From Prorocentrum cordatum (Eukaryota): a stretch of DNA of 64,000 nucleotides. The DNA lies in the NCBI GenBank assembly GCA_963575745.1, contig CAUYUJ010000246.1, forward strand, positions 1 to 64,000. The letters run 5' to 3'. Under the pieces are notes generated by a model, which was not told the origin of the DNA, searched no databases, and saw only the letters and a program-made list of their open reading frames with translations. Position 1 is the first letter of the stretch. Every line of letters begins with the position of its first letter. Positions 28,831 through 60,061 of the stretch are shown piece after piece. The position numbers and the translations under genes are program-made.

Positions 28831-28948
28831 CGCGCGCGGCGCTCGCAACCCCGCGCTCCCTCTCCCCCTTCCTCCGGCGCCCCGCGAGGGCGGAGTGGTT
28901 TGAGTGGGGGGAGGGCCGGCCCCAAGATGGGGCGGTGCCTCCCCCCTC

Positions 28949-31900: not shown

Positions 31901-32704
31901 AACAGAATGGGATTTCAAAACACATGGTTTTGGAGTGGAGATCTGTGGGGATTCTCTTCTTGTCATATCTTGGCTCCTAGGGAGGTGGGCGATAACTGAC
32001 TACACGTATCGAAAAAGAATAGGCTATATCATTGACATCATGAGCGGTCTGACGGAGATCTATGGAGTTCGGGCACCTTCGAATGGCAGGGATCCTTTTA
32101 AGCATGAGTTTCGGGAAGTAAATGAGCATGCGGATCGACTCACACATGATGCCCGCGAGGGCAGATCACACGAATGGAAGCGCTCTTTTTGCATGACACA
32201 CACACATGGACATATAACGCCTATCGCATTGAGGGGGTCCTTCGATGGCGGTAAATCTGAGGATGGAGTAGGATGTGGTGCATGGCTCGAGGCGGCGTTC
32301 ATATCCAGGTCCGACAGGATCGAAGGAAAGTTTTCGACCGTGTCCTGGCAACTCGTCTGGGAAAAAGCATGGTTGATTCCGTCGGAGAGCACAGTCACAC
32401 AGGCTGAATTATCCGCAGCAGAGTGTACGGTACACAACATCGGTCGTTTGCTTGGTGAGTTTGAGTCTTACTTTACTTGATCGTGGATTGTGAAAGATTG
32501 TGCTCACACGGATGAATAAGAGTTTGGTTTCTCGTGTACTGCCCGCGTGTTTGACGCGGATGATATCTCATGAGCTTCGCTCTTGTCATCTGTCCGTGTG
32601 CTTGGCACGGTTTTGACTCGCATGATCATGCAAATAAGAGTCTCTGCCGAGACGGACACTGCGACTGGGCCGTCAGGCCCGTGAGAGTCGTAGCCAGCCA
32701 GCCA
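28949..32704 (+). mobile_element. 5'-truncated non-LTR retrotransposon (LINE copy 1) with 12-bp target-site duplication and (AGCC)n tail
   Basis: GCCTCCCCCCTC at 28937-28948 and 32705-32716. (AGCC)4 at 32692-32707. 3' UTR stem-loop CGACT-GGGCC-GTCA-GGCCC-GTGAG-AGTCG at ~32662-32690. Confidence 0.9.
28971..32480 (+). CDS. LINE ORF2: C-terminal half of APE endonuclease, reverse transcriptase, permuted RNase H
   Basis: [20 protein letters not shown] (APE); [41 protein letters not shown] (RT); GDSLLV, NEHAD, FDGG, QAEL (RNase H). The ORF-track start at 27312 only reflects the stop-free satellite upstream. Confidence 0.9.
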
Positions 32705-32745
32705 GCCTCCCCCCTCCGGAGCGCCGGGAGGGGGTCGGGGGGGGG

Positions 32746-33680
32746 CTCGTGCGTGTGTTTGTATGTGTTCGTTCGTGTGACGTGGGTGTGGTTGTAAGTG
32801 TGTTCGTTTGTGCGTGTGTGTGTGCGTTTGCTTGTGTGACTGTCTCTGTTCTCAGTGCGTCTTTTCTGTGGGTGTTCGCGATTGCGTTCGTGTGTCTGGT
32901 GCGTGTGTGTGTCTGGTGCGTGTGCGTGTGTGTGTGTGTGTGTGCGCGTGTGCCTGTGTGTTCGTGCGTGTGTGTGTGTGTGTGCTTTTCTGTTTGCGTG
33001 TGTTTCTGTTTGTATGAGTGGGTGCGCGTGTGTTTGGTATGTGTGCGTGTGTGTGTGTGTGTGTGTGCGTGCGTCTGTGTGTGTGTGTGGGTATGGGCGT
33101 GCGTGTGGGGTGCGCGCGCATGAATGGGCGCGCGTGGATGAGTGTGCGCGCGCGTGTGGATGTGTGTTTGTGTCTGTGCTCGTGTGTGATTCTGTGTGCG
33201 TGCGTGCGCGTGCGTGTGCGCGCGCGCGCCCTCGGTGGCGCCGTGGTCCGCGCGCCCCCCCCCTTTTTTTTTTTCTCTCTCTCTCTCTCTCTCTCCCCTG
33301 CCTCGGGCGCGCCGCGGGGGCGGAGTGGGTGGAGTGGGGGGAGGGCCGGCCTCGGAATGGCGCAGCGCCTCCCTCCTCCGGAGCGCCGGCGGAGAGGGCG
33401 GGGGGCGAGGCGCGCGTGGGCGGCTTGTGTGTAGGGGTGTGTGCGCCTGTGTGTATGTATGTATGTATGTATACATACGTATATATATGATTATGTGTGA
33501 ACGCGTGCGTGCGTGCGTGTCTGTGTGTGCGTGAGTGTGTATGTGTGTGTGTTCGCATACTGTCCTACGCGTGGTTTCATGTTTCTCTGTATGTCTGTGT
33601 TTTAAGGTGGGTTGCGTGTCTGTTGTGTGTCTGTATGTGCTCGTTTGTGCTCGTGTGTGCGTGTGCTTGTATGTGTGAAT
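32746..33680. repeat. Diverged GT/GC alternating microsatellite-rich segment continuing the satellite
   Basis: (GT)n, (GC)n, (CT)n and (GTAT)n runs plus one diverged GC-rich island. Confidence 0.8.
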
Positions 33681-34277
33681 GCATCTTCGCTACTCGGTTT
33701 CTCGACCTCGCGCCGAACACTTTCAGGGTCGGATGGGGACATGGGAAATACCTTGTTTGAAATGTTTAAGAAGATCATATCTGAAGCTCTCTGCTTTTTT
33801 TCACTTACACTTATTGAACATGCGAGTAAAACAAAACTAGACGGCCTCCGTGGATTCTTCGACGGAGGTCGCTCTGTGGAGGGATGTGCTGCAGGATGGT
33901 GTATAGATTTGTGTGTACACGGGACGTGGCAGTTGGTGGCGGAGGAAGCTGTCTCGCTTGATGCCTCTGCTTCTGTCATGTTTTGTGAGATGATTGCAGC
34001 ACAACGGCTCTGTATGGCCGTGGAGCACATTTTGGGTAGCATCTTTCATCCAAGCAGCTGACTCATTTCATCTTGCTTGGAGCTCTCCAACACCTTTACA
34101 TTTTCACATGTTGTATTGCATCCTTTTCCTTGTTCCTGCATCCTATTCCGTTGCCTATGCCTCAGTGGCTCGGCAGTGTGATGATAAGAGTTGCCCTCTC
34201 CAGCTACCCTGTGCTCCGTTTGGGAGTCTTAGGGCTCAGCTGTCACAGCTGTCCGCGCCCTGACTCAAACTCAAAAA
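33680..34277 (+). mobile_element. 3' fragment of a related LINE (copy 2); left boundary approximate
   Basis: ORF ending at 34061 contains LRGFFDGG..AAGWCI..WQLVAE..SVMFCEMIAA, homologous to the C-termini of the other copies. A ~200-bp UTR and CTCAAA/A-rich tail abut ACCAGGTTGACGG. Confidence 0.75.
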
Positions 34278-34523
34278 ACCAGGTTGACGGTTTACCGCCG
34301 GCGCCCAGTTCCGGAGCGCTGGAGAGCTAGTTGGCAAGAAAAATCTCGACGGACCTTTTGGTGACTTTTGGTCGGTTGAAAATTTTGTTCTCGAAATTTG
34401 ACCATTCGTTAGAGCTCTAGTATTTTTTCCCATGATATTCGATCTTATTCCCGCTCGCCATCTTGATCTCAGCTCGATCGGGTAACTTTGAAGGCCAAAA
34501 AGCAGGGGGGCGGGAACGGCCGT

Positions 34524-35240
34524 TTCGAGTCATCTTGATACGCGTTGTCAGTATTTTGTACTTAACTCGAGCTGTAGGGCAGCTACAGAGCTGGTAAGCA
34601 CAGCTATCGCACTCAGAATTATCAGGCGCGTTCGCCTGTTGAAACCAGAGGTCTGAACTCGGTCTGCTAGCCGAGCTAGGTGCGGAAAGCTATTCGTATT
34701 ATTCGAGTCATCTTGATAGACGCTCTCGGTTTTCTGTACTTAACTCGAGCTGTAGGGCAGCTACAGAGCTGGTAAGCACGCCTATCGCATTCAGAATCAT
34801 CACGCGCGTTCGCCTGTTGAATCCAGAGGTCTGAACTCGGTCTGCTAGCCGAGCTAGGTCCGCAAATTTATTCGTATTATTCGAGTCATCTTGATAGACG
34901 CTCTCGGTTTTCTGTACTTACTCGAGCTCTAGGGCAGCTACTGGGCTCATTCTGACAGACATCGATGGGAAATGATCAGTCGCGTTCGGTTATTTAACCG
35001 AGAGCTCTGAACTCGGTCTGCTGCCCGAGCTAGGTTCGCGAAACTATTCGTATTGTCCGAATGATCTTGAGACATGCTCTGAATTTTCTGCACCCAACTC
35101 GTGCTGGGGGAGGGCTACAGTGCTGCGGGTCACATATATCGATTTGCACACATCAGGCGCGTCTTTCGGTCGATTCCAGAGCTCGGAACTTGGTCTGCTG
35201 CTCGAACTAGGTTCGCAAAACTATTATATTATTTGAGTCG
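34524..35240 (+). repeat. Internal ~178-bp tandem subrepeats of a type A element (representative)
   Basis: TTCGAGTCATCTTGA at 34524, 34702 and 34880 (period 178); later copies diverge progressively. Confidence 0.9.
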
Positions 35241-36772
35241 ATACCTCTGCACTTAACTCGGGCTGTAGGGTGGTTTCAGGGCTGGGAATCACATCAGTGG
35301 ATTCGCAGACATCAGACGCGCCCGCCTGTCGCATTCAGAGGTCTGAACTCGGTTTGATACTCGAACTGGGTTGCGAAACTGATTGTTTTTTTGATAGCGT
35401 GATCTTGAGAGGTCTGAAATCGCTTGGGCTTAAAAATATTCGTTCTTTGGAGTTTTTTCCCACAGTATATATTGTCAGGAAGCTCTACGAGTCCCCCGGC
35501 GGTAAGAAAGGTTGACGGTTTACCGCCGGCGCCCAGTCTCGACGGACCTTTTGGTGACTTTTGGTCGGTTGAAAATTTGGTTCTCGAAATTTGACAATTC
35601 GTTAGAGCTCTAGTATTTTTTCCCATGATATTCGATCTGATTCCCGCTCGCCATCTTGATCTCAGCTCGATCGGGTAACTTTGAAGGCCAAAAAGCGTCC
35701 CGGCGGGAGCGGCGGTTTCGAGTCATCTTGATACGCGCTGTCGGTATTTTGTACTTAACTCGAGCTGTAGGGCAGCTACAGAGCTGGTAAGCACAGCTAT
35801 CGCGTTCAGAATTATCATGCGCGTTCGCCTGTCGAATCCAGAGGTCTGAACTCGGTCTGCTAGCCGAGCTAGGTCCGCAAACCTATTCGTATTATTCGAG
35901 TCATCTTGACAGACGCTCTCGGTTTTCTGTACTTAACTCGAGCTGTAGGGCAGGTACAGAGCTGGTAAGCACACCTATCGCATTCACAATTATCACGCGC
36001 GTTCGCCTGTGGAATCGAGAGGTCTGAACTCGGTCTGCTAGCCGAGCTAGGTCCGCAAACCTATTCGTATTATTCGAGTCATCTTGATAGACGCTCTCGG
36101 TTTTCTGTACTTAACTCGAGCTCTAGGGAAGCTACAGGGCTCATTGTGACAAACATCGATGGGAAATCATCAGTCGCGTTCGTATATTGAAACAAGAGCT
36201 CTGAACTCGGCCTGCTGCCCGAGCTAGGTTCGCGAAACTATTCGTATTGTTCGAATGATCTTGAGACGTGCTCTCAATTTTCTGCATCCAACTCGTGCTG
36301 GGGGAGGGCTACAGTGCTGCGGGTCACATATATCGATTTTCACACATCAGGCGCGTCTTCCGGTCGATTCTAGAGCTCGGAACTCGGTCTGCTGCTCGAA
36401 CTAGGTTCGCAAAACTATTATATTATTCGAGTCGATACTGTCGGTTTTCTGCACTTAACTCGGGCTGTAGGTGGCTTCAGGGCTGGGAATCACATGGGTG
36501 GATTCGCAGACATCAGACGCGCCCGCCTGTTGCATTCAGAGGTCTGAACTCGGTTTGATACTCGAACTGGGTTGCGAAACTGTTTGTTGTTGATAGCGTT
36601 ATCTTGAGAGCTCTCAAATCGCTTGGGCTTAAAAAAATAGTCGTTCTTTGGAGTTTTTTCCCACGGTATATATTGTCAGGAAGCTCTACGAGTCCCCCGG
36701 CGGTAAGAAAGGTTGACGGTTTACCGCCGGCGCCCAGTTGGCAAGAAAAATCTCGACGGCCTTTTGGTGACT

Positions 36773-37834
36773 TAACTCGTAGAGCTTCCCTTAGCTAGTT
36801 ATAGCTGGAAGCTAAGAGTAATTCCGGCGCGCCCCACAGCTAGTTGGCTCGAAAAATCTCGACGGAACTTTTGACAACTTTTGCTCGGTTGAAAATTATG
36901 TTCTCGAAATTTGACCATTCGTTAGAGCTCTAGTATTTTTTCCCGTGATATTCGATCTTATTCCCGCTCGCCATCTTGATCTCAGCTCGATCGGGTAACT
37001 TTGAAGGCCAAAAAGCACGGTGGCGGGAACGGCCGTTTCGAGTCATCTTGATACGCGCTGTCGGTTTTTCGAACATAACTCGAGCTCTAGGGCAGCTACA
37101 GAGCTGGTAAGCACAGCTAATGCATGCAGAATGATCAGGCGCGTTCGCCTGTTGAACCCAGAGGCCTGAACTCGGTCTGCTAGCCGAGCTAGGTCCGCAA
37201 ACCTATTCGTATTATTCGAGTCAACTTGAACGCGTTGTCGGTATTTTCAACTTAACTCGAGCTGTAGGGCAGCTACAGTGCTGGTGGGCACACCCATCGC
37301 ATGCAGAATCATCTGGCGCGCTCGCCTGTTGAATCCATAGGTCTGAACTCGGTCTGCAAGCCGAGCTAGGTCCGCAAACCTATTCGTATTATTCGAGTCA
37401 ACTTGATACGCGTTGTCGGTATTTTCTACTTAACTCGAGCTGCAGGCCAGCTACAGTGCTGGTGAGCACACCTATCACACTCAGAATAATCAGGCGCGTT
37501 CGCCTGTTGAATCCAGAGCTCTGAACTCGGTCTGCTGCGCGATCCAGACTCACGAAACTGTTCGTATTCTTCCAGTCATCTTGACAGCTACTGTCGCCGT
37601 TCTGCACCTAACTCGGGCTGCAGGGGGGCTGCAGGGCGGTTAATCACATGAATCGATTCGGAGACATGAAACGCGTCTGTCTGTCGCATTCAGAGGTCCG
37701 AACTCGGTCTGATACTTGAGTTGGGCTGAAAAATTATTCGTTCTCTGCAATTTTTTTTGACATTATGTGTTGTCAGGAAGCTCTACGAGTCCCCCGGCGG
37801 TAACAAAGGTTGACGGTTTACCGCCGGCGCCCAG
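36773..37834 (+). mobile_element. Complete type A element inserted at T|T into another type A copy, no TSD
   Basis: Flanks GGTGACT and TTTGGTCGG rejoin to the uninterrupted GGTGACTTTTGGTCGG seen in other copies. Confidence 0.85.
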
Positions 37835-40651
37835 TTTGGTCGGTTGAAAATTTCGTTCTCGAAATTTGACCATTCGTTAGAGCTCTAGTATTTCTTCCCA
37901 TGATATTCGATCTTATTCCCGCTCGCCATCTTGATCTCAGCTCGATCGGGTAACTTTGAAGGCCAAAAAGCAGGGGGGCGGGAACGGCCGTTTCGAGTCA
38001 TCTTGCTACGGGCTGTCGGTATTTTCAACTTAACTCGAGCTGTAGGGCAGCTACAGTGCCTGTAAGCACAGCTATCGCACTCAGAATCATCAGGCGCGTT
38101 CGCCTGTTCAATCCAGAGGTCTGAACTCGGTCTGCTACCCGAGCTAGGTCCGCAAACCTATTCGTATTATTCGAGTCAACTTGATACGCGTTGTCGGTAT
38201 TTCCTACTTAACTCGAGGTGTAGGGCAGCTACAGTGCTGGTAAGCACACCTATCGCACCCAGAATCATCAGGCGCGTTCGCCTGTCGAATCCAGAGGTCT
38301 GAACTCGGTCTGCTAGCCGAGCTAGGTCCGCAAACCTATTCGTATTATTCGAGTCAACTTGATACGTGTTGTCGGTATTTTCTGCTTAACTCGAGGTCTA
38401 GGGCAGCTACAGTGCTGGTAAGCACAGCTATCGCACTCAGAATCATCAGGCGCGTTCGCCTGTTCAATCCAGAGGTCTGAACTCGGTCTGCTATCCGAGC
38501 TAGGTCCGCAAACCTATTCGTATTATTCGAGTCATCTTGACAGACGCTCTCGGTTTTCTGTACTTAACTCGAGCTGTAGGGCAGCTAGAGGGCTCATTGT
38601 CACAGACATCGATGGGGAATCACCATTCGCGTTCGTCTACTGAACCGAGAGCTCTGAACTCGGCCTGCTGCCTGAGCTAGGTTCGCGAAACTATTCGTAT
38701 TGTCCGAATCATCTTGAAGAGTGCTCTCGATTTTCTGCACTCAACTCGTGCTGGGTAGGGCTACAGTGCTGCGGGTCACAGATATCGATTTGCACACATC
38801 AGGCGCGTCTGTCTGTCGATTCCAGAGCTTGAAACTCGGTCTGCTGCTCAAACTAGGTCCGCGAAACTATTTTATTATTCGAGTCGATACTGCTGGTTTT
38901 CTGCACTTAACTCGGGCTGTAGGGGGGCTGCAGGGCTGGGAATCACATGAGTGGATTCGCAGACATCAGACGGGCCCGCCTGTCGCATTCAGAGGTCTGA
39001 ACTCGGTTTGATACTCGAACTGGATTGCGAAACTGTTTGTTCTTTGTTAGAGTCATCTTGAGAGGTGTGAAATCGCTTGGGCTGAAAAACTGGTCGTCCT
39101 TTGGAGTTTTTTTACACACTATTTACTGTCAGGAAGCTCTACGAGTCCCCCGGCGGTAAGAAAGGTTGACGGTTTACCGCCGGCGCCCAGTAGCTGGAAG
39201 CTAAGAGTAATTCCGGCGCGCTGGAGAGCTAGTTGGCAAGAAAAATCTCGACGGACCTTTTGGTGACTTTTGGTCGGTTGAAAATTTTGTTCTCGAAATT
39301 TGACATTCGTTAGAGCTCTAGTATTTTTTCCCATGATATTCGATCTTATTCCCGCTCGCCATCTTGATCTCAGCTCGATCGGGTAACTTTGAAGGCCAAA
39401 AAGCAGGCAGGCGGGAACGGCCGTTTCGAGTCATCTTGATAGGCGCTGTCGGTTTTCTCAAGATAACTCGAGCTTCAGGACACTACAGAGCTGGTCAGCA
39501 CAGCTAATGCGTTCAGAATGATCAGGCGCGTTCGCCTGTTGAATCCAGAGGTCTGAACTCGGTCTGCTAGCCGAGCTAGGGTCGCAAACCTATTCGTATT
39601 ATTCGAGTCATTGTAGCAGACGCTCTCGGTTTTTCGTACTTAACTCGATCTATAGGGCAGCCACAGGGCTCATACTAACAGAAATCGATTGAGACTTATC
39701 AGGCGCGTTCGTCTGTTGCATCAAGAGCTCTGAAATCGGCCTCCTCTCCGAGCTAGGTTCGCGAACCTATTCGTATTGTTCGAGTCATCTTGAGAAGTGC
39801 TCTCGGGTTTCTGTACATAAATCGTGCTGGGGGAGGGCTATAGCTCTGCTGGTCACAGGAATCGATTTCGAGACATTAGGCGCGTCCGTTCGTCGAACCG
39901 ATCGCTCGAAACTCGGTCTGCTGCTCGAACGAAATCTGCGAAACTGTTTTTGTTAGAGTCATCTTTGGAGGTTCATAAGCGAAAACTGGTCGTTCTCTGA
40001 AATTCGTTTCCACATTATATATTGTCAGGAAGCTCTACGAGTCCCCCGGCGGTAAGAAAGGTTGACGGTTTACCGCCGGCGCCCAGTTCCGGCGCGGGGT
40101 GGAGCTAGTTGGCGCACCCGGCCGAGGCGGACAATGTGACAACTTTTGGGTGGTTTTGCGAACTTTTGAAAGATATTTGACAATTCATTTTGAGAAAGCA
40201 GATTTTTCGCACCTGTAAACGAGTATGAGGGCCTCTCTGTCTTAATATGAGCTCTGTAGGCGCACTTTTGCTATCAAAACACTTGGCGCAACCATCTTCG
40301 TACCGACATGAAAAAAATCATGTTTTCTCTTTTTCGAGAAATGCTTCCAGAAGCCCTCTATTTCGATGCTGAGCACTCCTACGCGTGCTAGGAGCTCTAC
40401 GAGGTTCTCGGCGGTGACCAGGTTGACGGTTCACCGCCGGCGCCAGTCCCGGATAGCTCCTTGGAGAGCTGAGGGTTTCAGAGAAGTCCCCGTGCGGCAT
40501 TTCGCGCTTGCCTTTGCTATCCTTGGACGCTTACAAGTACCTCGTAGAGCTCTTCGTTATCGATGAGCTAGAGGAATTCCGGCGCAGGGTGGAGCTAGTT
40601 GGCAGACCCGGCCAGAACGGACAAAGATAACTTTTGGGTGGTTTTGCGATT

Positions 40652-42396
40652 TAACTCGTAGAGCTTCCCTTAGCTAGTTATAGCTGGAAGCTAAGAGTAA
40701 TTCCGGCGCGTCCCAGAGCTAGTTGGCAAGAAAAATCTCGACGGACCTTTTGGTGACTTTTGGTGGTTGAAAATTTTGTTCTCTAGATTTGACAATTCGT
40801 TGGAGCTCTAGTGTTTTTTCCCATGATATTCGATCTTATTCCCGCTCGCCATCTTGATCTCAGCTCGATCGGATAACTTTGAAGGCCAAAAAGCACACGG
40901 GCGGGAACGGCCGTTTCGAGTCGTCTTGATACGCGCTGTCGGTTTTCTCAAGATAACTCGAGCTTCAGGACACCTACAGAGCTGGTCAGCACAGCTAATG
41001 CGTTCAGAATGATCAGGCGCGTTCGCCTGTTGAATCCAGGGGTCTGAACTCGGTCTGCTAGCCGAGCTAGGGTCGCAAACCTATTCGTATTATTCGAGTC
41101 ATTGTAGCAGACGCTCTCGGTTTTTCGTACTTAACTCGATCTATAGGGCAGCCACAGAGCTCATACTAACAGAAATCGATTGAGAATTATCAGGCGCGTT
41201 CGTCTGTTGCATCAAGAGCTCTGAAATCGGCCTTCTCCCCGAGCTAGGTTCGCGAACCCATTCGTATTGTTCGAGTCATCTTGAGAAGTGCTCTCGGTTT
41301 TCTGTACATAAATCGTGCTGGGGGAGGGCTATAGCTCTGCTGGTCACAGGAATCGATTTCGAGACATCAGGCGCGTCCGTTCGTCGAACCGATCGCTCGA
41401 AACTCGGTCTGCTGCTCGAACGAAATCTGCGAAACTGTTGTATTATTCGAGTCATCCTGAGAGGTACTCTCGGTTTTCTGCACTTAACTCATACTGTATG
41501 GGCTGCAGAGCTGGTAATCACAGAAATCGATCCGCAGACATGAGACACGTCCGCCTGTCGCATTCAGAGGTCTGAACTCGGTTTCATACTCGAGCTCGAT
41601 TGGAAAACTGTTTGTTTGTTTTGTTAGAGTCATCTTTGGAGGTTCATAATCGCTTGGGCTGAAAAACTGGTCGTTCTCTGAAATTCGTTCCACATTATAT
41701 ATTGTCAGGAAGCTCTACGAGTCCCCCGGCGGTAAGAAAGGTTGACGGTTTACCGCCGGCGCCCAGTTTTGGGTGGTTTTGTGAATATTTCAAAGATATT
41801 TGACAATTTGTTTTGAGAAAGCAGATTCTTGCGCGTTGCATTGGCATATGAACTCTTCTCTGACAGTAGCTCAGCTTCCGGGGTGCATTTTCTTATGAGT
41901 TGACTTCCGGGAACTGCGCGAATATGAAGATCGAAAAATTTAAATAGAAGGTTTTCCCGAAAGCCGCTTTTCACCCAGTAGCAGATTAAGACTTAGTACC
42001 TCGTAGAGCTCTTCGGCATCGATGAGCTAGAGGAATTCCGGCGCGGGGTGGAGCTAGTTGGCCGACCCGGCCTTAAGAGACAAAGTGGTGACTTTGGGTC
42101 GGTTTTGCTAAGATTTGAAAGATATTTGACAATTCATTTTCAGAAACCAGATTTTTCTCACGTGTAGTGGGTTATGACGCGTCAGCCAGTAAAATTTTCA
42201 GGTCCGGAGCTTGAATATTACTATCGAAAGACTTGCAGGAACCGGTTCTGGATGAAAACCGAAAAATCGTGATTCCACGAATTTTTCGGCTCTCGCTTGA
42301 GAAGTTTCTTTGATGTGTTCCGAGAAGCGCTGCAACAAAATAGCTCTACGAGGTGCCCGGCGGTAAACTGGTTGACGGTTTACCGCCGGCGCCCAG
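40652..42396 (+). mobile_element. Composite element (type A + captured flank + type B), near-identical to 44112-45855
   Basis: Duplicate at offset 3460 (identical ORFs 41315/44775 and 41750/45210). Flanks GCGATT and TTTTGAAAG rejoin to the type B sequence seen at ~43125. Confidence 0.85.
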
Positions 42397-43413
42397 TTTT
42401 GAAAGATATTTGACCATTTATTTTAAGAAAGCAGATTTTTCGCACCTGTAAACGACTATGAGGGCTTCTCTGTCTTAATATAAGCTCCGTAGGCGCTCCT
42501 TTACTATCAAAACACTTGGAGCAACCATCTTCGCGTCGACACGAAAACATCAATTGTTCTCTTTTGTTGAGAAATGCTTCGAGAAGCTCTCCCTTTCGAC
42601 TCTGAGCACTCTTTCGCGTGGAAGGAGCTCTACGAGGTTCCCGGCGGTGACCAGGTTACGGTTCACCGCCGGCGCCAGTTGGCCCACCCGGCCAGAACGG
42701 ACAATGTGGCAACTTTTGGGTAGTTTTGCGAAAATTTGAAAGACATTTGACAATTTATTTTGAAAAAGCAGATTTTTACGCCGAGCATTGGCACATGAAC
42801 TCCTCTCTGACAGCAGCTCAGCTCTCTCGATGCATTTTGGCATGAGTTGACTTCCGGGAACTGAGCGAATATGAACATCGAAAAAATCAAATTTCAAGAT
42901 TTTCGAAAAATCTTCATTTTTGATTCTGTCTCGATTCTCTGCAATCTTACTAGTGAGAGGAGCTCTACGAGGTTCCCGGCGGTGACCAGGTTGACGGTTC
43001 ACCGCCCGCGCCAGTACCTCGTAGAGCTCTTCGGCATCGATGAGCTAGAGGAATTCCGGCGCGGGGTGGAGCTAGTTGGTCGACCCGGCCGAGGCGGACA
43101 AAGTGGTAACTTTTCGGTGGTTTTGCGATTTTTTGAAAGATATTTGACCATTTATTTTCAGAAAGCAGATTTTTCGCACCTGTGAACGGCTTTGAGGGTC
43201 TCTCTGTCTTAGTATGAGCTTTGTAGGCGCACTTTCACTATCAAAACACTTGGAGCAACCATCTTCATGTCGACACGAAAAAATCAATTATTCTCGTTTG
43301 TTAAGAAATGCTTCGAGAAACTCTCCCTTTCGACTCTGAGCACTCTTTCGCGTGGAAGGAGCTCTACGAGGTTCCCGGCGGTGACCAGGTTGACGGTTCA
43401 CCGCCGGCGCCAG

Positions 43414-50213: not shown

Positions 50214-51554
50214 TACCTCGTAGAGCTCTTCGGCATCGATGAGCTAGAGGAATTCCGGCGCGGGGTGGAGCTAGTTGGCCGACCCGACCAAAAGAGACAA
50301 TGTGATAACCTTGGGTCGGTTTTGCTTTGATTTGAAAGATATTTGACACTTCATTTTGAGAATCGGTATTATTCTCACGTGTAGTGGGTTATGCCGCGTC
50401 TGCCAGTTAAATTCTCAGGTCCGTAGCTGCAATATTACTATCAAAAGACTTGCTGGAACCAACTGCGTTCCGAGTCATCTTGACACGCGTTCACGGTTTT
50501 CTGTACTTAACTCGAGATTTTGAGAGCTACAGAGCTGATACTTACAGAAACCGATTCAGAATGATCAGGCGCGTTCGCCTGTTGCATCCAGAGGCCTGAA
50601 CTCGGTCTGCTACTCGAGCTAGGTCCGTAAAAGTCATCTTCACCAGTGATGCCGGTTTTCTGTACTCAACTCAAGATTCAGAGGAGCTACAGAGCTGGTG
50701 CGCACATAAACTGATTCAGTATCACCAGGCGCTTGCGTCTGTTGCATCGAGAGGCCTGAACTCGTTCTGCTTGTCGAGCTAGGTCCACAACGCTATTCGT
50801 ATTTCTCAAGTTTTCTTTAGAGGCGCTGTCGGTATTCTGCACTTAACTCTAGCTGTAGCACAGCTACAGAGGTGGTACGCACAGAAACCGATACAGAATC
50901 ATCAAGGGCGTTTGGCTGAAGCATCTAGAGCTCTGAACAGATTCTGCTTCTCGAGCTAAGTCCGCAAAACTAGTTGTATGCGATCGATTTTTTTTCGAGT
51001 TTTTTGGCACTCGCCTGAGCTTGCTTCACGTGTTCCGAGGAGCTGGGCAAGAAAAGAGCTCTACGAGGTCCCCGGCGGGTGTAGGGCTCCTGGACCCCAC
51101 AGGCAAGAAAAGGGCTCAAGACATCTCGGCTCTAGGGCTCCTGGACCCCACAGGAGCTCAGGGGGTGTCGGCGCCGCGGGGAAGCGGCGCGGCGGCCATC
51201 GCTGCCATCGACGAGTACGGCATCTTCCAGGCAAGCCAGGCCGCCTGCTTTGTGTACTGTATTTGTTGTTGTTTTTTTCTTGTCGTGTGTGCAACAACGG
51301 ACGGGTACGACTTTTCAATACTTGCTAGACGTTTCCAGCTGGAGGATATTTCCCCGACTGTACCTTATTTGCAGGACTCACAGGATTACGCTGTTGAGGG
51401 ACCAGATTCTGCTGTTGAGAGGGCGTCTCGGAAGAGGCAACTTCAGGATACCGAGCAAATTGTGCGTGACCTTCCACTGGACGGGAGATTGAATACTGCC
51501 GACTCCACACCAGATAGTGATTGTCATTGTGCTGTCCCATCTTCATTTGTGAAT

Positions 51555-52871
51555 ATGAATACAGGGCTCATGAATATGATGCAGACTCCTTCCAACGCAG
51601 CTGTGGCGGGAAATACGATCAACGGAGGGCGTGTGGGAGGGGCTCCAGCAGGTCAGGTCAGTCCTGGAGGTCAAGGATCTGGAGGCGCTCCTGTTGTTCC
51701 TAGAGGCCCAGCTCCACAAGGTGCTCTAGGGGGACCCCCAGGTATGCCCACGGAGGCACAACAAGCGGCGGCCCAAGCGGCTGTTGTCCCTGAAGGTGCT
51801 GGAGAGCATCAGGGTATGCAGGGTGTTAGCGACGACGCCCAACGAAATGTCAAACATCGTGTCAATGGTCCTCAGGAGGCACTCTTGGGGGAACTCGAGG
51901 AGAAGCGAAAGAAACTCAGTGTGGTCTCGGACGAGGCCCCATCCTGGTTCAAGGCCTTCGCGGAGCTCAACGTACTCGAGAGCAAAGTTAGGCAACAAGA
52001 AAACGTCGAAATTAGGGCCGATATTCAGAGCATCTCGAACCGTCAGGAGGCCTCCGACATCAGGATGAGCAACTTGGAACGACAAATGCAGGATCTCAAG
52101 AAGAACCCCAGTGTGATATCAGGTGCTGCCTCGACCACGGCACCTTCCTATGGAGGAGGCCCACCAGGACTCTCGGGACCATCCAGCTTCAATCCCAGCT
52201 ATGTGGAACTCACAGGCTGGACTGACTGGAGCGGGACAGCGGTTACACGTTCGGCCAGTATGATGAGAGACACGGACGCTGCACAATTTATCACTAATTT
52301 GAAGACGGCCATCGCTGCAGAGGATGAAGCTAGGATCGATTACGAGGGCACATTACGTATGAATGGAAGTAGAATGATGTTGAGTACGATCAAAATCAAA
52401 TTCTTTGTAGGAACCGACTCTTCGATACTATACAACGTGAAGCGTGCTTTTGATGATGCTTTAACTCCGAATCCCCAGAGGAATGCGGCTCAGGTTTCGA
52501 GGTCACCTCCAGACTATGACAGCATGTTCCAGGGCATGTTACAGCGACCCAGTCGGGTCCGAGTACGTATAGAAGCTCCACCATGGAAACGTGATCATAT
52601 CGGAGCTGTGGGGCGTTTCTACGGGACATACCGCGAGTGCACCAACGGTGAGGCTATGGAGATCAGGGGGGAGACAGGATCGGGACCCAACGGACGGAGC
52701 ACAATGTGGACCAAACCGCAGGATCCTCAGCACCGACCTGTGGAACTGGCATCCTTTCGTATCAATACGGGGTGGACAGTGGACCGCGAGATCTGGGAGG
52801 GTGTACTTATGCGCAGCGGTGTGACGACTACATACGACACATTTGTGGCGAGTCTTGCCGGCAGGGCGTGA
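51555..52871 (+). CDS. LINE ORF1-like protein (Gly/Pro/Gln-rich N-terminus, coiled coil, globular C-terminal region); start uncertain, frame is open from 51021
   Basis: Lies directly upstream of ORF2; heptad-like ELNVLESKVRQQENVEIRADIQSISNRQEASDIRMSNLERQMQDLKK. Confidence 0.7.
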   Translation: MNTGLMNMMQTPSNAAVAGNTINGGRVGGAPAGQVSPGGQGSGGAPVVPRGPAPQGALGGPPGMPTEAQQAAAQAAVVPEGAGEHQGMQGVSDDAQRNVKHRVNGPQEALLGELEEKRKKLSVVSDEAPSWFKAFAELNVLESKVRQQENVEIRADIQSISNRQEASDIRMSNLERQMQDLKKNPSVISGAASTTAPSYGGGPPGLSGPSSFNPSYVELTGWTDWSGTAVTRSASMMRDTDAAQFITNLKTAIAAEDEARIDYEGTLRMNGSRMMLSTIKIKFFVGTDSSILYNVKRAFDDALTPNPQRNAAQVSRSPPDYDSMFQGMLQRPSRVRVRIEAPPWKRDHIGAVGRFYGTYRECTNGEAMEIRGETGSGPNGRSTMWTKPQDPQHRPVELASFRINTGWTVDREIWEGVLMRSGVTTTYDTFVASLAGRA

Positions 52872-52928
52872 CGGTGCAGAGGTGCCAGTCGGGCTGGTGG
52901 CCCCACAGCCCAGCATAGGCTAGGCACC
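52869..52928 (+). promoter_or_regulatory. Candidate stop-codon readthrough signal: UGA-CGG, 9-nt spacer, stem-loop
   Basis: TGA at 52869-52871 followed by CGG. Pairings GGTGCC/GGCACC (52881-86/52923-28), AGTC/GGCT and GGGCTG/CAGCCC. Confidence 0.55.
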
Positions 52929-55900
52929 CAGAATCTTATGAAACAAGGGGCTACAGCAGATCGGGGATTTGCTTGCATGAGGGCACTTCTTTCTCACGGC
53001 TGTGAAGTGTTCTGTTTACAGGAGTGTGAACACTTACCGTCCAATTCAATTCAGCTGCTTGGCTGGCACCTAGTTTACTCAAGTGACAGGAAGGCTTCCA
53101 TAGCTTTGAGGGGGAAGTCTTGTCACAACATAGTTCGTTCTTGGAACAATCATGCTCGTCTTGCTATTGTGTGCTTGCGTCATCCGTGTATCTTTCTTGT
53201 CTCTGCGTACTTTCCGAATAGATCGGAGAATCGTTCATTGGAGGTGGCTTTTGAGATGCTGAAAACAATCGAAACAACATATCGGAGGTGGAAGGAGGAG
53301 TGCAGATACACATGTGAGCTTGTGATTGCAGGGGATTTTAATGTTGAGCTTGCGCCCGACATCACCTGTTCAGGAGGCACGGTGACTGGAGGCGCTGTGC
53401 AGATTCTCGACGGGAGGGGATATGGGAATGATACGGAGGATAGGCGGTGGGAGGAGGACATGTGGCGATCTCAGCTGCAGGAGTGGCTATGTCGGATGCG
53501 CTTGCTGGCAGTCAATTCTCTCGGCTCGCCGTACTCTCGGCAGCCGACCTTCGTGCATCGTGCGAACAATGCTCGACGCAAGTCTGGGGCGAAGACTATT
53601 GCGCCAAAAGTGCTTGACTATCTCATGGTCCCACAATCCTGGGAGGGTGACTTGGTTGAATGCCGAACGGATTGGATCCCAGAGACCCCGACTACCAACT
53701 TCTCGGATCACGCCTGTGTCTACGCCGAGTTCCAGATGCAGAACCCTCAGGTCACGAAATATCAAGGCCCCCCTAGCCACCACACAAGCCACAAAGAGTT
53801 CCAATCGTATCGGGAGGAGGCCCAATTCCAGGTCCTGGCGGACGTACAGATCCCGACGGTGCCCCCACAACGTATTGCTGGAACGATCGCTGAACATGCG
53901 TTACCACTCCTCGCGGTGAGGGCCCCCAGGTACTCCAGAGGGCTCCCACCAAGTAGGACTCCTCAACATGCCGACCTGGAGGTACAACTCAGAGAGGCAC
54001 GTGCTAGGAAGGACAGAGCGTTGGCTCGAGACCTTCGACGTCGCATCAGACCGCTGGCGCGGGAATATCGCCGACGGAAGGTGGAGTGGGAGGCACTACC
54101 ATCTAGGAAGGGGAGGAGGACACGTGTGACGGAGTTGAGGGTGACGGACACTGGGGGAGGGGATGTGGGTCCTACGACTATGATGACGGAGGACAGGGAA
54201 CTATGGGCGGAGGAGGTGGAGCGATATGCTGTGCAGAGTATGACTTGTGATGACTCCAGAGCCCGCAATCGGGAGCTAGTGTCCACACTGCGTCGCCATG
54301 CATCTCAATCAACAGCCTCTTCGGACAACACACTTACGATCACATACTCTACTATTCTGCAGGCGCGGAGCAGACTCCGAACAGGACGGGCCTGTGGGCC
54401 CGATGGCATCTCGGTTGAACTTCTCAAGGCTCTTTCGTGGAGGTCAGTGCGTTCTATTGGTAAGGTTTTCTCTGATATATTCAACGGGCTTCGCCCGACG
54501 CCAAGGGAATGGCAGGAAGTATACCTAACACTTATGCCGAAAACGAGTAAACTGGAAACATTGCGACAAACAAGGAACCTGCTTGTTGGAAATACCTTGG
54601 CCAAGTGGTATCTCACGTGCGTGACGATTTTACTGGAAAGATGTGTGGAACCCTTCATGAGTGATATGGCGGTCTACGGTTTTACCAGCGGACGGCGTTG
54701 CTGGGAGATTTCATCGGCCATGAAATGTATTGCACAGCATGCTTCCACATGGGGGCGAGATCAAACGGCGTGGCTCCTCAGCTGTGACATCGAGCGGGCG
54801 TTCGATGCTGTGACGCTGCCGACAGTCTCGAGAGCGATGACGGCCCTGGGGATCAGTGCACGGTTACAGTATGCGTTATTGGAGCCTCTCTCATCTACCT
54901 CATGCACGGTGCTGTTTGAAGGAGTGACAATCCCAAATGTGCAATGGGACAGGTCACTCCGTACTGGGGGTACCGAATCACCTATCGCGTTTACTATTGT
55001 CACTATTGCTATGTGGCGGGATGTGATTGCTCGCCTGGACCAGCGCGGTGTCGGAGTCGAGATGCCATGCCATGACGATCACTGCCGGTACGCACGGTGG
55101 AATCATGCTCTCTGGGCCGACAATATTTTTCTGGCCGCCAAGTCAGCATCGGAGGCGCAGGTAGCAGCCACTGCCTTCACTACTGCTCTCAGGGAGTGGG
55201 GGATGGAGTGGAAGGAGGAGAGTTTAGAAATGATGGTGTGTGGTACTCAGTACACTGATACGGTCACGGTTCAGATTGGCTCGCGGATTGTACCTTTCAA
55301 GCGTGTTGAGAGTTTGAATGTGCTGGGATATCAGATTCCCAGAAGTTTCACTGCTATCCACACGGATGTGCAGGAGCGCGTCCAGCAGGCCCGACGGGCG
55401 TTCTTTGCGCAGGTGCAGTATTTTACGTGCAGGGCGTTGCCTCTGGTGAAGAAGTTTCGTCGATATCAATCGACTGTGCAGAGCCGCCTTTTATATGCAG
55501 CAGAGGCCATCACGATTGACAGTGAGTGTGTGAGGGTTATTCATGCGTTCGAGGGTATGTGTCTTCTGAGAATGTCAGGGAGGAGGAAGCCAGGAGATGT
55601 GGGGTGGGAGGTATGGCGGCCAGCTGCACTGACACGTGTCAGGACAATCTTCTGCGATGGGGGTTTCCCATCGGCTGTGCAGATGCTGTGCTGGAAGAGC
55701 TGGGGCATGATGCGCTCCACGAGGCAATATTTACTATCTTTGGAGGAGGACAGGACGGCAAGGACGGAGGTTGAGGTGGAGGGATCAACGACTCAACGTG
55801 CTAAACGTGTTCGCTTTACGGAGGGACGGGGGGAGGATATACCTGCTGCGACTGTGATGGAGGCGGAGGGGAGGAGTACGGACATGGAGAGGAGGCTGGA

Positions 55901-57230
55901 GGATCTCTGCTCGCAGGTCGCCTGTTCCATTGCCCGCTCACAGCCGATGCCCTCTGGAGAGGGAGCTACCCACACTCTCAGAGACGAGCCGCTTGCCGTC
56001 TCAAAGGGGAGGAGGGCCTTTCGAGACTCCCGACGTGCGCTTATGATGTACAATGTTGGCTGGGTCACGGCTCGCGACACAATAACAGAGGTTCTACGAC
56101 AACACGGCAGCAGGGCCTTATCTAGTTCGGGCAAACGGCTTCGTGGAGGCCCTGTGTCTGTGGGCGGACGGTCTTGGCAGTTCCCATACATTCAGTTCTT
56201 TGGGGAAAAGTGGTGGGAGTCTGTACGGGGTGATTGGGTTCAATTCTTGGAGGTATGGAAGCAACTCCTTATACAATACAACAAATCTAAGGTCTATGAT
56301 TACTTTGTGGTGTCTTGGAAGGGCTCTCCTAATGGACCTCGAGGCTCCCCTGAGGCTCGTGAGAAGGCCGATACTGAGATGGTCGATACCGCGACCAACC
56401 CTCTGCACCCCAAGTATGACCCCAAAGAGTCCGCCAAGCTTGCAATACGATATGCGATGATCCAGGAACGCGCGACTGTGTGGGACATATCGTCAGAGGG
56501 TTTTGCTGCTGAGTTCAAGGGTGACTCACTACTTATCTGCTCCTGGCTCCAGGGTAAATGGAGATGTGAGAATCGTGGCTACTGCAAGAGGACAGCTGCC
56601 ATGATTGATTGTACCTTTGAGCTCGCCGCGTGTTTCAATCTGAGGCCTGCTGCCTTGGGACGTGAGATATGGAGACACGAATTCAGGGAGGACAATACAC
56701 GAGCGGATGAATTGACGCATGAGGCCAGATATGGCCGCACATTCTACAGAACTCATCGTTATCTATATCCATTCGAAACTTATCTCGTACCGTTCGCTAT
56801 CAGGGGAGGCTTTGATGGCGGGGTTGACCAGCAAGGATCAGGATGTGGTTTCTGGCTTCAGATCGGCTTAATCAATACTCAGTGCAATCCCAGTGAGATA
56901 GGAATCGCTTCCGCGAGAACCGTGGGCCCCTTCCCTGCTGGGCATGAGTTTGCTGTTTCTAGTGCCGTGCCCCTCGTTTGGAGGGATGTGGCCGAGGCCG
57001 CGTGGCTCCTCGAAGGAGCTACAGTCACAGAATGTGAATTGTCGGCAGCCGAAGCGCTGCTTAGCGCTGCCCGTGTGCTTCTGCGGGACCGGTCCTCGCC
57101 CAGCTGCACCCAGCTGGGAACGCGAGTCCAAACAAACAAACAAACCAGGTTGACGGTTTACCGCCGGCGCCCAAGTTCCGGAGCGCTGGAGAGTAGTTCG
57201 CAAGAAAAATCTCGACGGACCTTTTGCTGA
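52872..57230 (+). CDS. LINE ORF2: APE endonuclease, reverse transcriptase, permuted RNase H (first ATG at 52938)
   Basis: LGTQNL, FCLQEC, VSAYFP, AGDFNVEL, VLDYLMVP, FSDHACV (APE); GPDGISVELL, YGFTSGR, CDIERAFD, LRTGGTESP, LWADNIF (RT); KGDSLLI, NTRAD, FDGG, TECELSAAE (RNase H). Uninterrupted 1430 aa from the ATG. Confidence 0.93.
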   Translation, partial: RCRGASRAGGPTAQHRLGTQNLMKQGATADRGFACMRALLSHGCEVFCLQECEHLPSNSIQLLGWHLVYSSDRKASIALRGKSCHNIVRSWNNHARLAIVCLRHPCIFLVSAYFPNRSENRSLEVAFEMLKTIETTYRRWKEECRYTCELVIAGDFNVELAPDITCSGGTVTGGAVQILDGRGYGNDTEDRRWEEDMWRSQLQEWLCRMRLLAVNSLGSPYSRQPTFVHRANNARRKSGAKTIAPKVLDYLMVPQSWEGDLVECRTDWIPETPTTNFSDHACVYAEFQMQNPQVTKYQGPPSHHTSHKEFQSYREEAQFQVLADVQIPTVPPQRIAGTIAEHALPLLAVRAPRYSRGLPPSRTPQHADLEVQLREARARKDRALARDLRRRIRPLAREYRRRKVEWEALPSRKGRRTRVTELRVTDTGGGDVGPTTMMTEDRELWAEEVERYAVQSMTCDDSRARNRELVSTLRRHASQSTASSDNTLTITYSTILQARSRLRTGRACGPDGISVELLKALSWRSVRSIGKVFSDIFNGLRPTPREWQEVYLTLMPKTSKLETLRQTRNLLVGNTLAKWYLTCVTILLERCVEPFMSDMAVYGFTSGRRCWEISSAMKCIAQHASTWGRDQTAWLLSCDIERAFDAVTLPTVSRAMTALGISARLQYALLEPLSSTSCTVLFEGVTIPNVQWDRSLRTGGTESPIAFTIVTIAMWRDVIARLDQRGVGVEMPCHDDHCRYARWNHALWADNIFLAAKSASEAQVAATAFTTALREWGMEWKEESLEMMVCGTQYTDTVTVQIGSRIVPFKRVESLNVLGYQIPRSFTAIHTDVQERVQQARRAFFAQVQYFTCRALPLVKKFRRYQSTVQSRLLYAAEAITIDSECVRVIHAFEGMCLLRMSGRRKPGDVGWEVWRPAALTRVRTIFCDGGFPSAVQMLCWKSWGMMRSTRQYLLSLEEDRTARTEVEVEGSTTQRAKRVRFTEGRGEDIPAATVMEAEGRSTDMERRLEDLCSQVACSIARSQPMPSGEGATHTLRDEPLAVSKGRRAFRDSRRALMMYNVGWVTARDTITEVLRQHGSRALSSSGKRLRGGPVSVGGRSWQFPYIQFFGEKWWESVRGDWVQFLEVWKQLLIQYNKSKVYDYFVVSWKGSPNGPRGSPEAREKADTEMVDTATNPLHPKYDPKESAKLAIRYAMIQERATVWDISSEGFAAEFKGDSLLICSWLQGKWRCENRGYCKRTAAMIDCTFELAACFNLRPAALGREIWRHEFREDNTRADELTHEARYGRTFYRTHRYLYPFETYLVPFAIRGGFDGGVDQQGSGCGFWLQIGLINTQCNPSEIGIASARTVGPFPAGHEFAVSSAVPLVWRDVAEAAWLLEGATVTECELSAAEALLSAARVLLRDRSSPSCTQLGTRVQTNKQTRLTVYRRRPSSGALESSSQEKSRRTFC

Positions 57231-59333
57231 CTTTTGGTCGGTTGAAAATTTTGTTCTCGAAATTTGACAATTCGTTAGAGCTCTAGTATTTTTTCCCATG
57301 ATATTCGATCTTATTCCCGCTCGCCATCTTGATCTCAGCTCGATCGGGTAACTTTGAAGGCCAAAAAGCAGGCAGGCGGGAACGGCCGTTTCGAGTCATC
57401 TTGATATGCACTAACGGTTTTCTGAACATAACTCGAGCTCTAGGGCAGCTAGAGAGCTGGTAAGCACAGCTAATGCATGCAGAATGATCAGGCGCGTTCG
57501 CCTGTTCAAGCCAGAGGTCTGAACTCGGTCTGCTAGCCGAGCTAGGTTTGCAAACCTGTTCGTATTATTCGAGTCATCTTGACAGAAACTCTCGGTTCTC
57601 TGAACTTACTCGAGCTGTAGGACAGCTACAGAGCTGATATTTACAGGCACCAATTCAGAATCATCAGTTGCGTTTGTCTGTCGAATCCAGAGCTCTGAAC
57701 TCGGTCTGCTGCCCGATCTAGAATCGCGAAACTATTCGTATCGTTCGAGTCGCTTGCGATATGCAATCGGTTATCTGGACTTAACTCGGGCTGTAGGAGG
57801 CTGCATGGCTGGTAATCACTGGAATCGATTCGAAGACATCAGGCGCGTCCGCCTGTCGAATAGAGACCTCTGAACTCTGTCTGCTGCCCGAAGTAGGTCC
57901 GCGAAACTATTCCTATTGTTCGAGTCATCCTGAGAGGTGCCGTCGGTTTTCTGCACTTAACTCGGGCTACAGGGGGGTGCAGGACTGGTAATGACAGGAG
58001 TCGATTCGCAGACATCAGACGCGTTTGTCTCTCGCATTCAGAGGTCAAAAACTATCCACTATATATCAGATTGTTGGTAAGTGCTGTCTGTTTTCTCAAC
58101 TTAAGTCGAGTTAGGAAGCTCTACGAGTCTCCCGGCGGTAACCAAGGTTGACGGTTTACCGCCGGCGCCCAGTTATTGCTGGAAGCTTTAGAGTAATTCC
58201 GGAGCGCTGGAAAGCTAGTAACTCGTAGAGCTTCCCTTAGCAAGTTATTGCTGGAAGCTTAAGAGTAACTCGTACAGCTTCCCTTAGCAGGTTATTGCTG
58301 GAAGCTTAAGAGTAATTCCGGAGCGCTGGAGAGATAGTTGGCAAGAAAAATCTCGGCGGAACTTTTGGTGACTTTTGGTCGGTTGAAACTTTTGTTCTCG
58401 AAATCTGACCATTCGTTAGAGCTCTAGTATTTTTTCTGTGATATTCGATCTTATTCCCGCTCGCCATCTTGATCTCAGCTCGATCGGGTAGCTTTTACTG
58501 CCAAAAAGCACGGTGGCGGGATCGGCCGTTTCGAGTCATCTTGATACGCGTTATTGGTATTTTGTACTTAACTCGAGCTGTAGGGCAGCTACAGAGCTGG
58601 TAAGCACACCTATCGCATTCAGAATCATTAGGCGCGTTCGCCTGTTGAATCTAGAGGTCTGAACTCGGTCTGCTAGCCGATCTAGATCTGCAAATCTATT
58701 CGTAATATATGGGTCATCTTGATAGACGTTCTCGGTTCTCTGTACTTAACTCGAGCTACAGGACAGCTACAGAGCTCGTAAGTACACCTATCGCATTCAG
58801 AATCATTATTCGCGTTCGCCTGTTCAATCTAGAGGTCTGAACTCGTTCTGCTAGCCGAGCTAGGTCCGCAAACCTATTCGTATCATTTTGGTTATCTTGA
58901 TAGACGCCCTCGGTTTTCTGTATGTAGGGCAGCTGCAGAGCTCATAATCACAGAAATCGATTGGGAATCATTCGGCGCGCTCGCGCGTCGAGTCGAGAGC
59001 TCTGGGCTCGGCCTGCTGCCCGAGCTAGGTTCGCAAAACCATTCGTATTGTTCCAGTCATTCTGAGAAGTGCTCTCGCTATTCCGCACTCAACTCGTGCT
59101 GGGGGGGCTACAGTACTGCTGGTCCCGGAAATCGATTCTGAGACATCAGGCGCGTCCGTTTGTCGAATCCAGAGCTCGGAACTCGGTACTAGGTCCGCGA
59201 AACTATTCTATTATTGGAGTTGTTCGTTTTTTTGTTAGAGTCATCTTGAGAAGTCTGAAATCGCTTAGCCTGAAAAACTAGTCGTTCTTCGGAATTCTCT
59301 CCACATTCCTACGAGTCAGGAAGCTCTACGAGT

Positions 59334-60061
59334 GATGATGGGATCGGTCTCGAGCTGACGGGCGATTCGCTTCTTATCTGTAACTGGATCAATGGTCTCT
59401 GGAAGGTTGAGGGAGGAGAAGGAGGAGATGGGCTTCTTATCGTAGGCGGGTGGCAAATATTATTTCTCTTTTGGAAGAGTTGGAGGAGGAAGGAATACGA
59501 CCCCCCTCATGGGGCAACGACTTCATTCGACACATATATCGAGAGAGTAACACAGTAGCTGATGAACTTACCCACTTAGCACGGGAAGGCCAGATATTCA
59601 TAGAGCTGTTCCACCACCATATCTTTCGTTCTGATGTCCGAGACAACTTTCGAGTTATTGGCCTCCGCGGATCCTTCGACGGCGGAGTGTGTGCCCAAGG
59701 TGTGGGCGTTGGCTGGTTTCTGCAGATTGGATATATTCCTCGATTCCATGACCCTAACCCTGACCCTGAGCATAGAGATAAGAGAGCTCGGTGGGTTTTA
59801 AAAAAACAAAAAAAAATTACAACAAAGTCTCAACTCTTCCCCCAAGCCTCCCTCCTTGTCCAATCCATATGGGAAATAGTAGGGCGTTGTGCAACAGCAC
59901 TCCCTCCCATAAGCAGTATCACTGAACCTGAAGGTTTCGGCTCGAGGCCTCTGCGGCCCAGTCCAGTGGCCCAAACCTCCAGCTGCAGAGAAACAAGGTA
60001 CAACATAACGGGCGCTTGGGCGCCTCGGTGCCTGTCAGTCCCTCCCCAAAAAAAAAACAAA
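59334..60061 (+). mobile_element. Heavily 5'-truncated LINE (copy 4) retaining only the permuted RNase H region and an A-rich tail
   Basis: ELTGDSLLICNWINGLWKV (from ~59352), then frameshifted [36 protein letters not shown]. Flanked by AGCTCTACGAGT and TTGACGGTTACCGCC. Confidence 0.85.

Follow-up and report, generated by a model that had tools for sequence, protein, structure and literature searches.

What kind of domain closes the protein of a long interspersed nuclear element (LINE) family whose ribonuclease H (RNase H) motifs stand in the wrong order? The question is raised by a 64,000-nucleotide stretch of the Prorocentrum cordatum assembly GCA_963575745.1 (contig CAUYUJ010000246.1, positions 1 to 64,000, forward strand), here called the window, which is almost wholly repetitive and in which four pieces of one LINE family lie among the repeats. 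A preliminary description of this DNA had noted the swapped motifs at the C-terminus of the LINE protein and had read them as a natural circular permutation, and this reading was supported by an in silico swap of the halves, a rotation scan, structure prediction and conservation across the family. We consider it highly probable that the C-terminal ~190 residues of the second open reading frame (ORF2) are a single archaeal-like type-1 RNase H (RVT_3/RNase_H) that has undergone natural circular permutation.

The C-terminal domain in the four copies and in their relatives

In copies 1 and 3 of the LINE, the ~190 C-terminal residues of ORF2 run through GDS, H..RE.N..AD, FDGG and T..E in that order, after which the chain ends. 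Translations and coordinates place the swapped motifs of these two copies where the preliminary description had put them. The copies, their domains and their motifs are as follows.

28971–32480, plus strand: LINE copy 1, 5′-truncated within the endonuclease, ORF2 intact to its stop, inside a (GTGTGTCT)n array
31947–32477, plus strand: permuted RNase H domain of copy 1, with the stop directly after it at 32478–32480
31947–31973, plus strand: copy 1 motif GDSLLVISW (this and the next three from translation of the ORF2 frame)
32103–32147, plus strand: copy 1 motif H..RE.N..AD
32229–32252, plus strand: copy 1 motif LRGSFDGG (FDGG at 32241–32252)
32391–32408, plus strand: copy 1 motif T..E, the motif stretch continuing to 32423
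33813–34058, plus strand: LINE copy 2, a 5′-truncated remnant with the FDGG...E half alone
50937–52871, plus strand: first open reading frame (ORF1) of copy 3, first ATG at codon 207, ending in a TGA in frame with ORF2
52872–57230, plus strand: ORF2 of copy 3, 1452 codons, with an endonuclease-like N-terminus, reverse transcriptase, C-terminal region and permuted RNase H
56520–57104, plus strand: permuted RNase H domain of copy 3, a full match of the family hidden Markov model (HMM), ORF2 residues 1191–1407
56520–56546, plus strand: copy 3 motif GDSLLICSW
56676–56720, plus strand: copy 3 motif HEFREDNTRADELTH (H..RE.N..AD)
56799–56822, plus strand: copy 3 motif IRGGFDGG
57021–57053, plus strand: copy 3 motif TVTECELSAAE
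59331–59932, plus strand: LINE copy 4, a degenerate, frameshifted RNase H fragment
59361: GDS of copy 4, in a frame of its own, within the GDS part 59331–59411
59534–59575: copy 4 motif RESNTVADELTH, in a second frame
59663–59686: copy 4 motif LRGSFDGG, in the second frame
59915–59932: copy 4 motif SITEPE, in the second frame

Copy 3 is full length, an upstream frame (ORF1) being followed by ORF2 in the same frame; the first ~40 bases of its ORF1 overlap a 178-bp satellite, and Pfam matched no family in this ORF1. In the FDGG half, its RNase H domain carries an insertion of ~22 residues that separates the second strand from the third. For copy 1, residues 121–1301 of the database relative P0005 align to 28971–32462 in tblastn; the copy lies in an open frame at 27300–32480, which before 28971 reads through microsatellite. 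Copy 2 matches positions 104–196 of the family HMM (E 1e-21), that is, the DGG/E half that it had been said to retain, and its likeness to the relative P0032 places it in the P0032 subfamily. The family HMM aligns copy 4 up to the catalytic E and no further, which together with the split of its motifs over two frames marks it as a pseudogene fragment with a frameshift and without the last helix. Truncation at the 5′ end is seen in copies 1 and 2, and A-rich 3′ tails follow copy 3, as (CAAA)n, and copy 4, as an A-run.

That ORF2 belongs to a LINE is indicated by a Pfam RVT_1 match at residues 588–822 of the copy 3 protein (49 bits against a cut-off of 29.6). The best PDB match of the full-length profile was the RNA-directed DNA polymerase chain of 8c8j, which we take to be human LINE-1 ORF2p (E 1.9e-5). 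At the N-terminus (residues 23–313), where Pfam gave no match, both PDB matches were to exodeoxyribonuclease III and were weak (E 0.5).

The motif order is a trait of the family. Two database relatives, 58% and 37% identical in this region, have the same order and end directly after the domain, and the order recurs in the relatives P0005, P0006 and P0305. When a four-sequence profile of the domain was scored against 1.84 billion cluster representatives, it matched 427 proteins at E ≤ 0.001, 128 at E ≤ 1e-10 and 32 at E ≤ 1e-30; among the best 150 of the 427, the sole canonical RNase H was P0136, a tandem triple. At least 170 of the 213 profile positions were matched as one piece, in rotated order, by 37 of 156 family proteins, and the distance from the end of the domain to the C-terminus was 0–30 residues in 35 of these 37 and 45 and 62 residues in the other two. 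The metagenome locus L002 holds an intact ORF2 of 1379 codons with the same permuted ending. Searching 152 family proteins with a canonical RNase HI HMM, we found 120 matched by its C-terminal half alone and 15 by the C-terminal half followed by the N-terminal half; the N-terminal half preceded the C-terminal half in none of the 152, the full-length canonical P0136 aside.

DNA nearly identical to copy 3 was present in at least 20 sequencing runs from 15 studies among the matches listed. These runs were mostly marine, estuary, freshwater or plankton metagenomes, with one urban sample and three organisms given by code; at least half of the sampled copy 3 words were present in 8 of them, and there was no RNA run among them. 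The 20 family clusters that were looked up came from ENA, JGI and Logan and none from NCBI or UniRef; one member, P0139, is labelled 'ribonuclease HI' by JGI. A word-index search with the reverse transcriptase region of copy 3 returned no match and one with its C-terminal region returned two. A scan for the dinoflagellate spliced-leader motif gave no match.

Both halves compared with canonical RNase HI

A canonical set was gathered through P0136, which had 348 relatives at E ≤ 1e-5; the best 120 of the 348 were examined, and all except the first carried both PF13456 and PF00075. In hhalign, an alignment of 45 family sequences was compared with 112 of these canonical sequences, each of which carries both Pfam families. 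The first half of the LINE domain (residues 16–101) aligned with canonical positions 75–149 at a probability of 98.6% (E 1.3e-15), and the second half (residues 111–190) aligned with canonical positions 8–73 at a probability of 80–88% (E 1.4e-5 to 2.8e-6). The two matches do not overlap and jointly span the canonical domain; in their columns FDG is paired with the first catalytic D and T..AE with TNNeAE.

Swapping the halves in silico turned the two out-of-order matches into one, which covered canonical positions 9–147 of 157 over 137 columns (probability 99.4%, E 5.6e-21). All 20 controls in which the columns of the second half had been shuffled gave E ≥ 0.099. When the domain was rotated at 25 cut points, the score peaked at 127–128 for cuts at 96–112, with 134–137 columns aligned, compared to 75 columns in the native order. 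The best cuts fall in the linker that leads from the AD helix to the FDGG strand and joins the old termini. Taken together, these sequence profile comparisons show that both halves are homologous to canonical RNase HI, in rotated order.

Searches of other kinds led to the same enzyme. In a PDB search with the domain profile, five of the six best matches were archaeal-type RNase H (4e19, 3u3g, 3aly, 2ehg and 4h8k; E 0.015–0.56), and these chains align by their C-terminal half to the start of the LINE domain. An ESM Atlas feature search, which is independent of residue order, gave RNase_H and RVT_3 as the nearest clusters (score 0.91). A single-sequence phmmer search of the PDB returned nothing relevant.

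These comparisons also bear on the possibility that the motif order arose by chance or is a low-complexity, assembly or frameshift artefact with no homology to RNase H at all. Such an origin would fit the silence of Pfam and of the single-sequence PDB search and the richness of the window in repeats. Against it stand the hhalign matches (E 1e-15 to 6e-17 for the first half, and the stronger match after the swap) set beside the shuffled controls, and the recurrence of the order in hundreds of independent database proteins and in the intact frame of L002. The family-wide profile matches, hhalign and the shuffled controls thus refute an artefact, to which we assign a practically negligible probability.

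Predicted fold and catalytic residues

AlphaFold2, run on copy 1 with the family alignment, returned one compact domain (predicted local distance difference test, pLDDT, 93.2; predicted template modelling score, pTM, 0.90). Its elements, in domain numbering, are the following.

19–25: strand
28–34: helix
43–63: helix
75–77: strand
84–94: helix, followed by a linker with a short strand and a helix
114–128: strand
131–144: strand
157–168: strand
174–200: helix

The model of P0060, a relative of 29% identity, had the same element order (pLDDT 90.8, pTM 0.83). In both models the predicted order is beta4-alphaB-alphaD-beta5-alphaE-linker-beta1-beta2-beta3-alphaA, compared to beta1-beta2-beta3-alphaA-beta4-alphaB-alphaD-beta5-alphaE in the canonical enzyme. 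On these models the permuted domain is very likely one folding unit; structure prediction was among the checks that the preliminary description had proposed.

Structural searches with the two models gave weak signals. The RNase H rows had the highest sequence identity in the VIA-align tables (24–31%), and for the second half of the P0060 model VIA-align found 8r0s_A (cauliflower mosaic virus reverse transcriptase) and 7o0g_A (foamy virus protease-reverse transcriptase) at Z 3.2–3.3, in stretches that we read as their RNase H domains. All the VIA-align Z values given here lie within the range that the tool calls a common arrangement.

Several results weigh against a permuted RNase H. Pfam found no RNase H in the native sequence, neither at E ≤ 10 in four window proteins and three C-terminal pieces nor at E ≤ 0.01 in six full-length relatives; RVT_1 alone was seen in the window proteins and in the relatives. 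The preliminary description had expected two out-of-order partial matches that merge after the swap; this was borne out with hhalign and not with Pfam, which gives no native RNase H match rather than two partial ones. A profile of the FDGG...E half alone matched no RNase H in the PDB, its sole match being histone H2B (E 0.066). The second half is also weaker than the first, an E-value of ~1e-5 being reached in profile-profile comparison alone; its homology is argued from that comparison together with the gain on swapping, the predicted three strands plus helix and the invariant D and E. In structure space, the sequence-order search with Foldseek against the PDB gave no RNase H (best match PelC, template modelling score 0.28–0.34). 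Sequence-order VIA-align placed unrelated alpha/beta folds on top for both models (Z 5.0–5.5), and its RNase H chains (Z 3.3–4.1) covered half of the model alone, the first half. Such weak sequence-order matches are expected of a permutation, yet they are no positive proof of one. The two models are not independent, both folding alignments having been drawn from one family. Finally, among the 152 family proteins the canonical HMM found no intermediate of a duplication, sought as a canonical half before GDS or after alphaA.

The same data can be set against another view, in which two RNase H domains once stood in tandem and the region keeps the rear half of the leading domain and the front half of the one behind it; the missing halves would have degenerated beyond recognition, and what is left would not form a single folding unit. 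Tandem canonical RNase H does exist in nature: the 569 residues of P0136 contain it three times over, and matches of the family profile extend across these repeats. In addition, the helix that directly precedes GDS can be aligned to the last part of canonical alphaA and may be a relic. In 17 full-length members (10 of them distinct), however, the stretch of 300 residues before GDS gave nothing that resembles canonical RNase H (best E 0.57, probability 0.1%), and in 35 of the 37 proteins examined for their ends the chain stops shortly past alphaA. AlphaFold2 packs both halves as one domain in both models, and conservation covers all four carboxylates, even though a single half would hold only two. 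The preliminary description had named two tandem degenerate domains as the finding that would overturn it; the upstream residues and the chain ends argue against them, and we regard this explanation as very improbable. Extra GDS or FDG motifs picked up by regular expressions in family proteins proved on inspection to be chance occurrences.

For the permuted domain as a single RNase H, the next question is whether it is a nuclease. The four carboxylates, D26, D87, D124 and E178 in the domain numbering of copy 1, align on the canonical motif columns in hhalign and as a set presumably correspond to E. coli D10, E48, D70 and D134, which are given here in canonical order. Conservation was counted over 151 representatives of 50%-identity clusters, as follows.

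D of FDG: kept in 129 of 130
E of T..E: kept in 102 of 102
D of GDS: kept in 107 of 112
D of AD: kept in 132 of 136
G after the D of FDG: kept in 130 of 130
N of RE.N: kept in 135 of 137

All four acidic positions had been said to be kept in the three fuller copies. This held for copies 1 and 3 and agrees with the conservation across the family; copy 4 is a broken fragment and not one of the fuller copies.

A fold of this kind could instead have been kept as a structural or nucleic-acid-binding module, truly a permuted RNase H yet without nuclease function; the 'connection' domain of retroviral reverse transcriptase, a degenerate derivative of RNase H, is an analogue. An acidic residue is indeed absent in 5 of 112 representatives at GDS, 4 of 136 at AD and 1 of 130 at FDG. 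The acidic positions are nevertheless among the best-conserved columns across representatives more than 50% different from one another, as expected of a catalytic site and unlike a scaffold, and the G of GDS, the N and A of RE.N..AD and the G of FDG are conserved as in active enzymes. We therefore think an inactive fold improbable, if less so than two tandem remnants. The conservation pattern is that expected of an active DEDD site, and judged from sequence the domain is probably active.

Origin, surroundings and meaning

In the permuted RNase H, the chain would enter at beta4 (GDS) and pass through alphaB, alphaD, beta5 and alphaE (H..RE.N..AD). A linker of ~20 residues would then join the old C- and N-termini and lead into beta1 (FDGG), beta2 and beta3, and the chain would end at helix alphaA (T..E). 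The two halves would together build the usual DEDD two-metal active site. The domain would most likely remove the LINE RNA from the RNA:DNA hybrid of target-primed reverse transcription, the role played by a canonical C-terminal RNase H in other LINEs.

Circular permutations usually come about when a tandem duplication is followed by losses from the two ends. Here, an ancestral canonical C-terminal RNase H would have been duplicated in tandem, after which the leading copy would have lost its first half and the trailing copy its second. In the RNase H sheet, beta1 and beta4 run parallel and next to each other, so that entry at beta4 shifts the tether to the polymerase only slightly. This small shift may be the reason that the change was tolerated.

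Our literature search found no description of a permuted RNase H in retroelements, in agreement with the preliminary description, which knew of no natural example. The closest known arrangement is in L1 LINEs of oomycetes and plants, for which the available text reports the acquisition of ribonuclease H domains (PMC5348765). These archaeal-like RNase H domains (aRNH, PF13456) are of the same type-1 sequence kind (DS.LV..L.G.., H..RE.N..AD.LA, FDG., TNN.AE), also stand at the end of a LINE protein with endonuclease and reverse transcriptase, and are likewise presumed to remove template RNA. The plant and oomycete domains are in canonical order, whereas the LINE domain described here is rotated, escapes Pfam and has its old termini joined by the linker.

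The best PDB sequence matches, which share the catalytic motifs, were Halobacterium RNase H1 (4e19), LC11-RNase H1 (3u3g) and Sulfolobus tokodaii RNase HI (2ehg, 3aly). Archaeal-type RNase HI has no basic protrusion, a trait shared with the LINE domain. These prokaryotic enzymes differ from it in being stand-alone proteins of 133–199 residues in canonical order, and it is only to their C-terminal halves that the start of the LINE domain aligns.

P0136, a protein of 569 residues encoded on a 2-Mb contig, is a head-to-tail triple of nearly identical canonical RNase HI repeats with Pro/Ala-rich linkers of ~55–60 residues. A duplicated domain of this kind can be the starting point of a permutation, and P0136 is matched by the family profile at E 1.2e-10. 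It differs in that each repeat is complete and canonical and the protein has no reverse transcriptase, and it is not supported as an ancestor.

A 2026 survey, CIRPIN, shows a pair of circularly permuted RNase H-like domains among AlphaFold DB clusters (PMC13552848, Fig. 5D), and thus, as far as its available text goes, a natural circular permutation within the same fold. That text names no protein, family, catalytic residues or retroelement for the pair, which, compared by text alone, may be the present family. The absence of NCBI and UniRef sources among the 20 family clusters makes it less likely that the family is in AlphaFold DB.

A further observation concerns the reading frames of the LINE. 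In copy 3, ORF1 and ORF2 share one frame with a single TGA between them (52869–52871), and the metagenome relative L002 has the identical ORF1-TGA-ORF2 layout (TGA at 1441–1443); both elements read TGA CGG TGC. UGA-CGG is a stop-readthrough context in RNA viruses, and by analogy the ORF2 of the LINE may be made as an ORF1-ORF2 fusion through readthrough of the TGA. RNA folding downstream of the ORF1 TGA gave no structure beyond that of shuffles (z −0.69 and +0.26).

Around the copies, a 13-kb (GTGTGTCT)n array occupies 15684–28829 with ~1650 units at 75% match and recurs at about 32750–33500; a GC-rich unit is interspersed in it at least three times, and LINE copy 1 is inserted in the array. 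From 34 to 64 kb lie arrays of the 178-bp satellite, each preceded by a unit of ~250 bp that recurs every ~1.1–1.4 kb. Copies 2, 3 and 4 end, after an A-rich or (CAAA)n tail, at one point of this unit (89–97% identical). Either the LINE inserts site-specifically into the ~250-bp unit, or the unit and the satellite are the LINE 3′ end left after extreme 5′ truncation. The first 16,000 positions have a GC content of 0.68 and long plus-strand frames, and they resemble a Helitron/Helentron-type element. GC skew is 0.2–0.4 over the first 34 kb and near zero after, and AT skew is about −0.87 in the microsatellite. These other features of the window are listed below.

3910–8139, plus strand: frame of 1409 codons with no Pfam match
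7863–9821, plus strand: PIF1-like helicase (Pfam)
10781–12934, plus strand: Exo_endo_phos endonuclease (Pfam)
13800–15491, plus strand: UCH protease fragment (Pfam)
34273–34534: ~250-bp unit
57144–57400: ~250-bp unit
60046–60311: ~250-bp unit, with ~20 more sites between 34 and 64 kb

This LINE's ORF2 ends in an RNase H of type 1 whose permutation is real and family-wide. With a confidence a little above even, we lean towards a fuller reading: that a type-1 RNase H which is circularly permuted by nature and still catalytically active is seen here for the first time; that the permuted form is fixed across a large lineage of LINEs so far read as having no RNase H (hundreds of 50%-identity clusters, from the DNA of marine and freshwater plankton); and that an archaeal-like RNase H gave rise to it through duplication and loss on two sides, the entry at beta4 altering the tether of the nuclease to the reverse transcriptase.

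Few folds have been studied as much as RNase H, both in work on protein folding and in retroelement biology, and whether a LINE has an RNase H of its own is used in the classification of clades and in reasoning on dependence on host enzymes. Domain annotation undercounts the LINEs that bear one: Pfam detected it in neither of the two full ORF2 proteins of the window and in none of six full-length relatives. The family shows that a well-known enzyme can escape fold searches that follow sequence order. It offers a natural test of chain connectivity in the folding and catalysis of RNase H, beside the engineered permutants, and a case for the rewiring of the tether between polymerase and nuclease.

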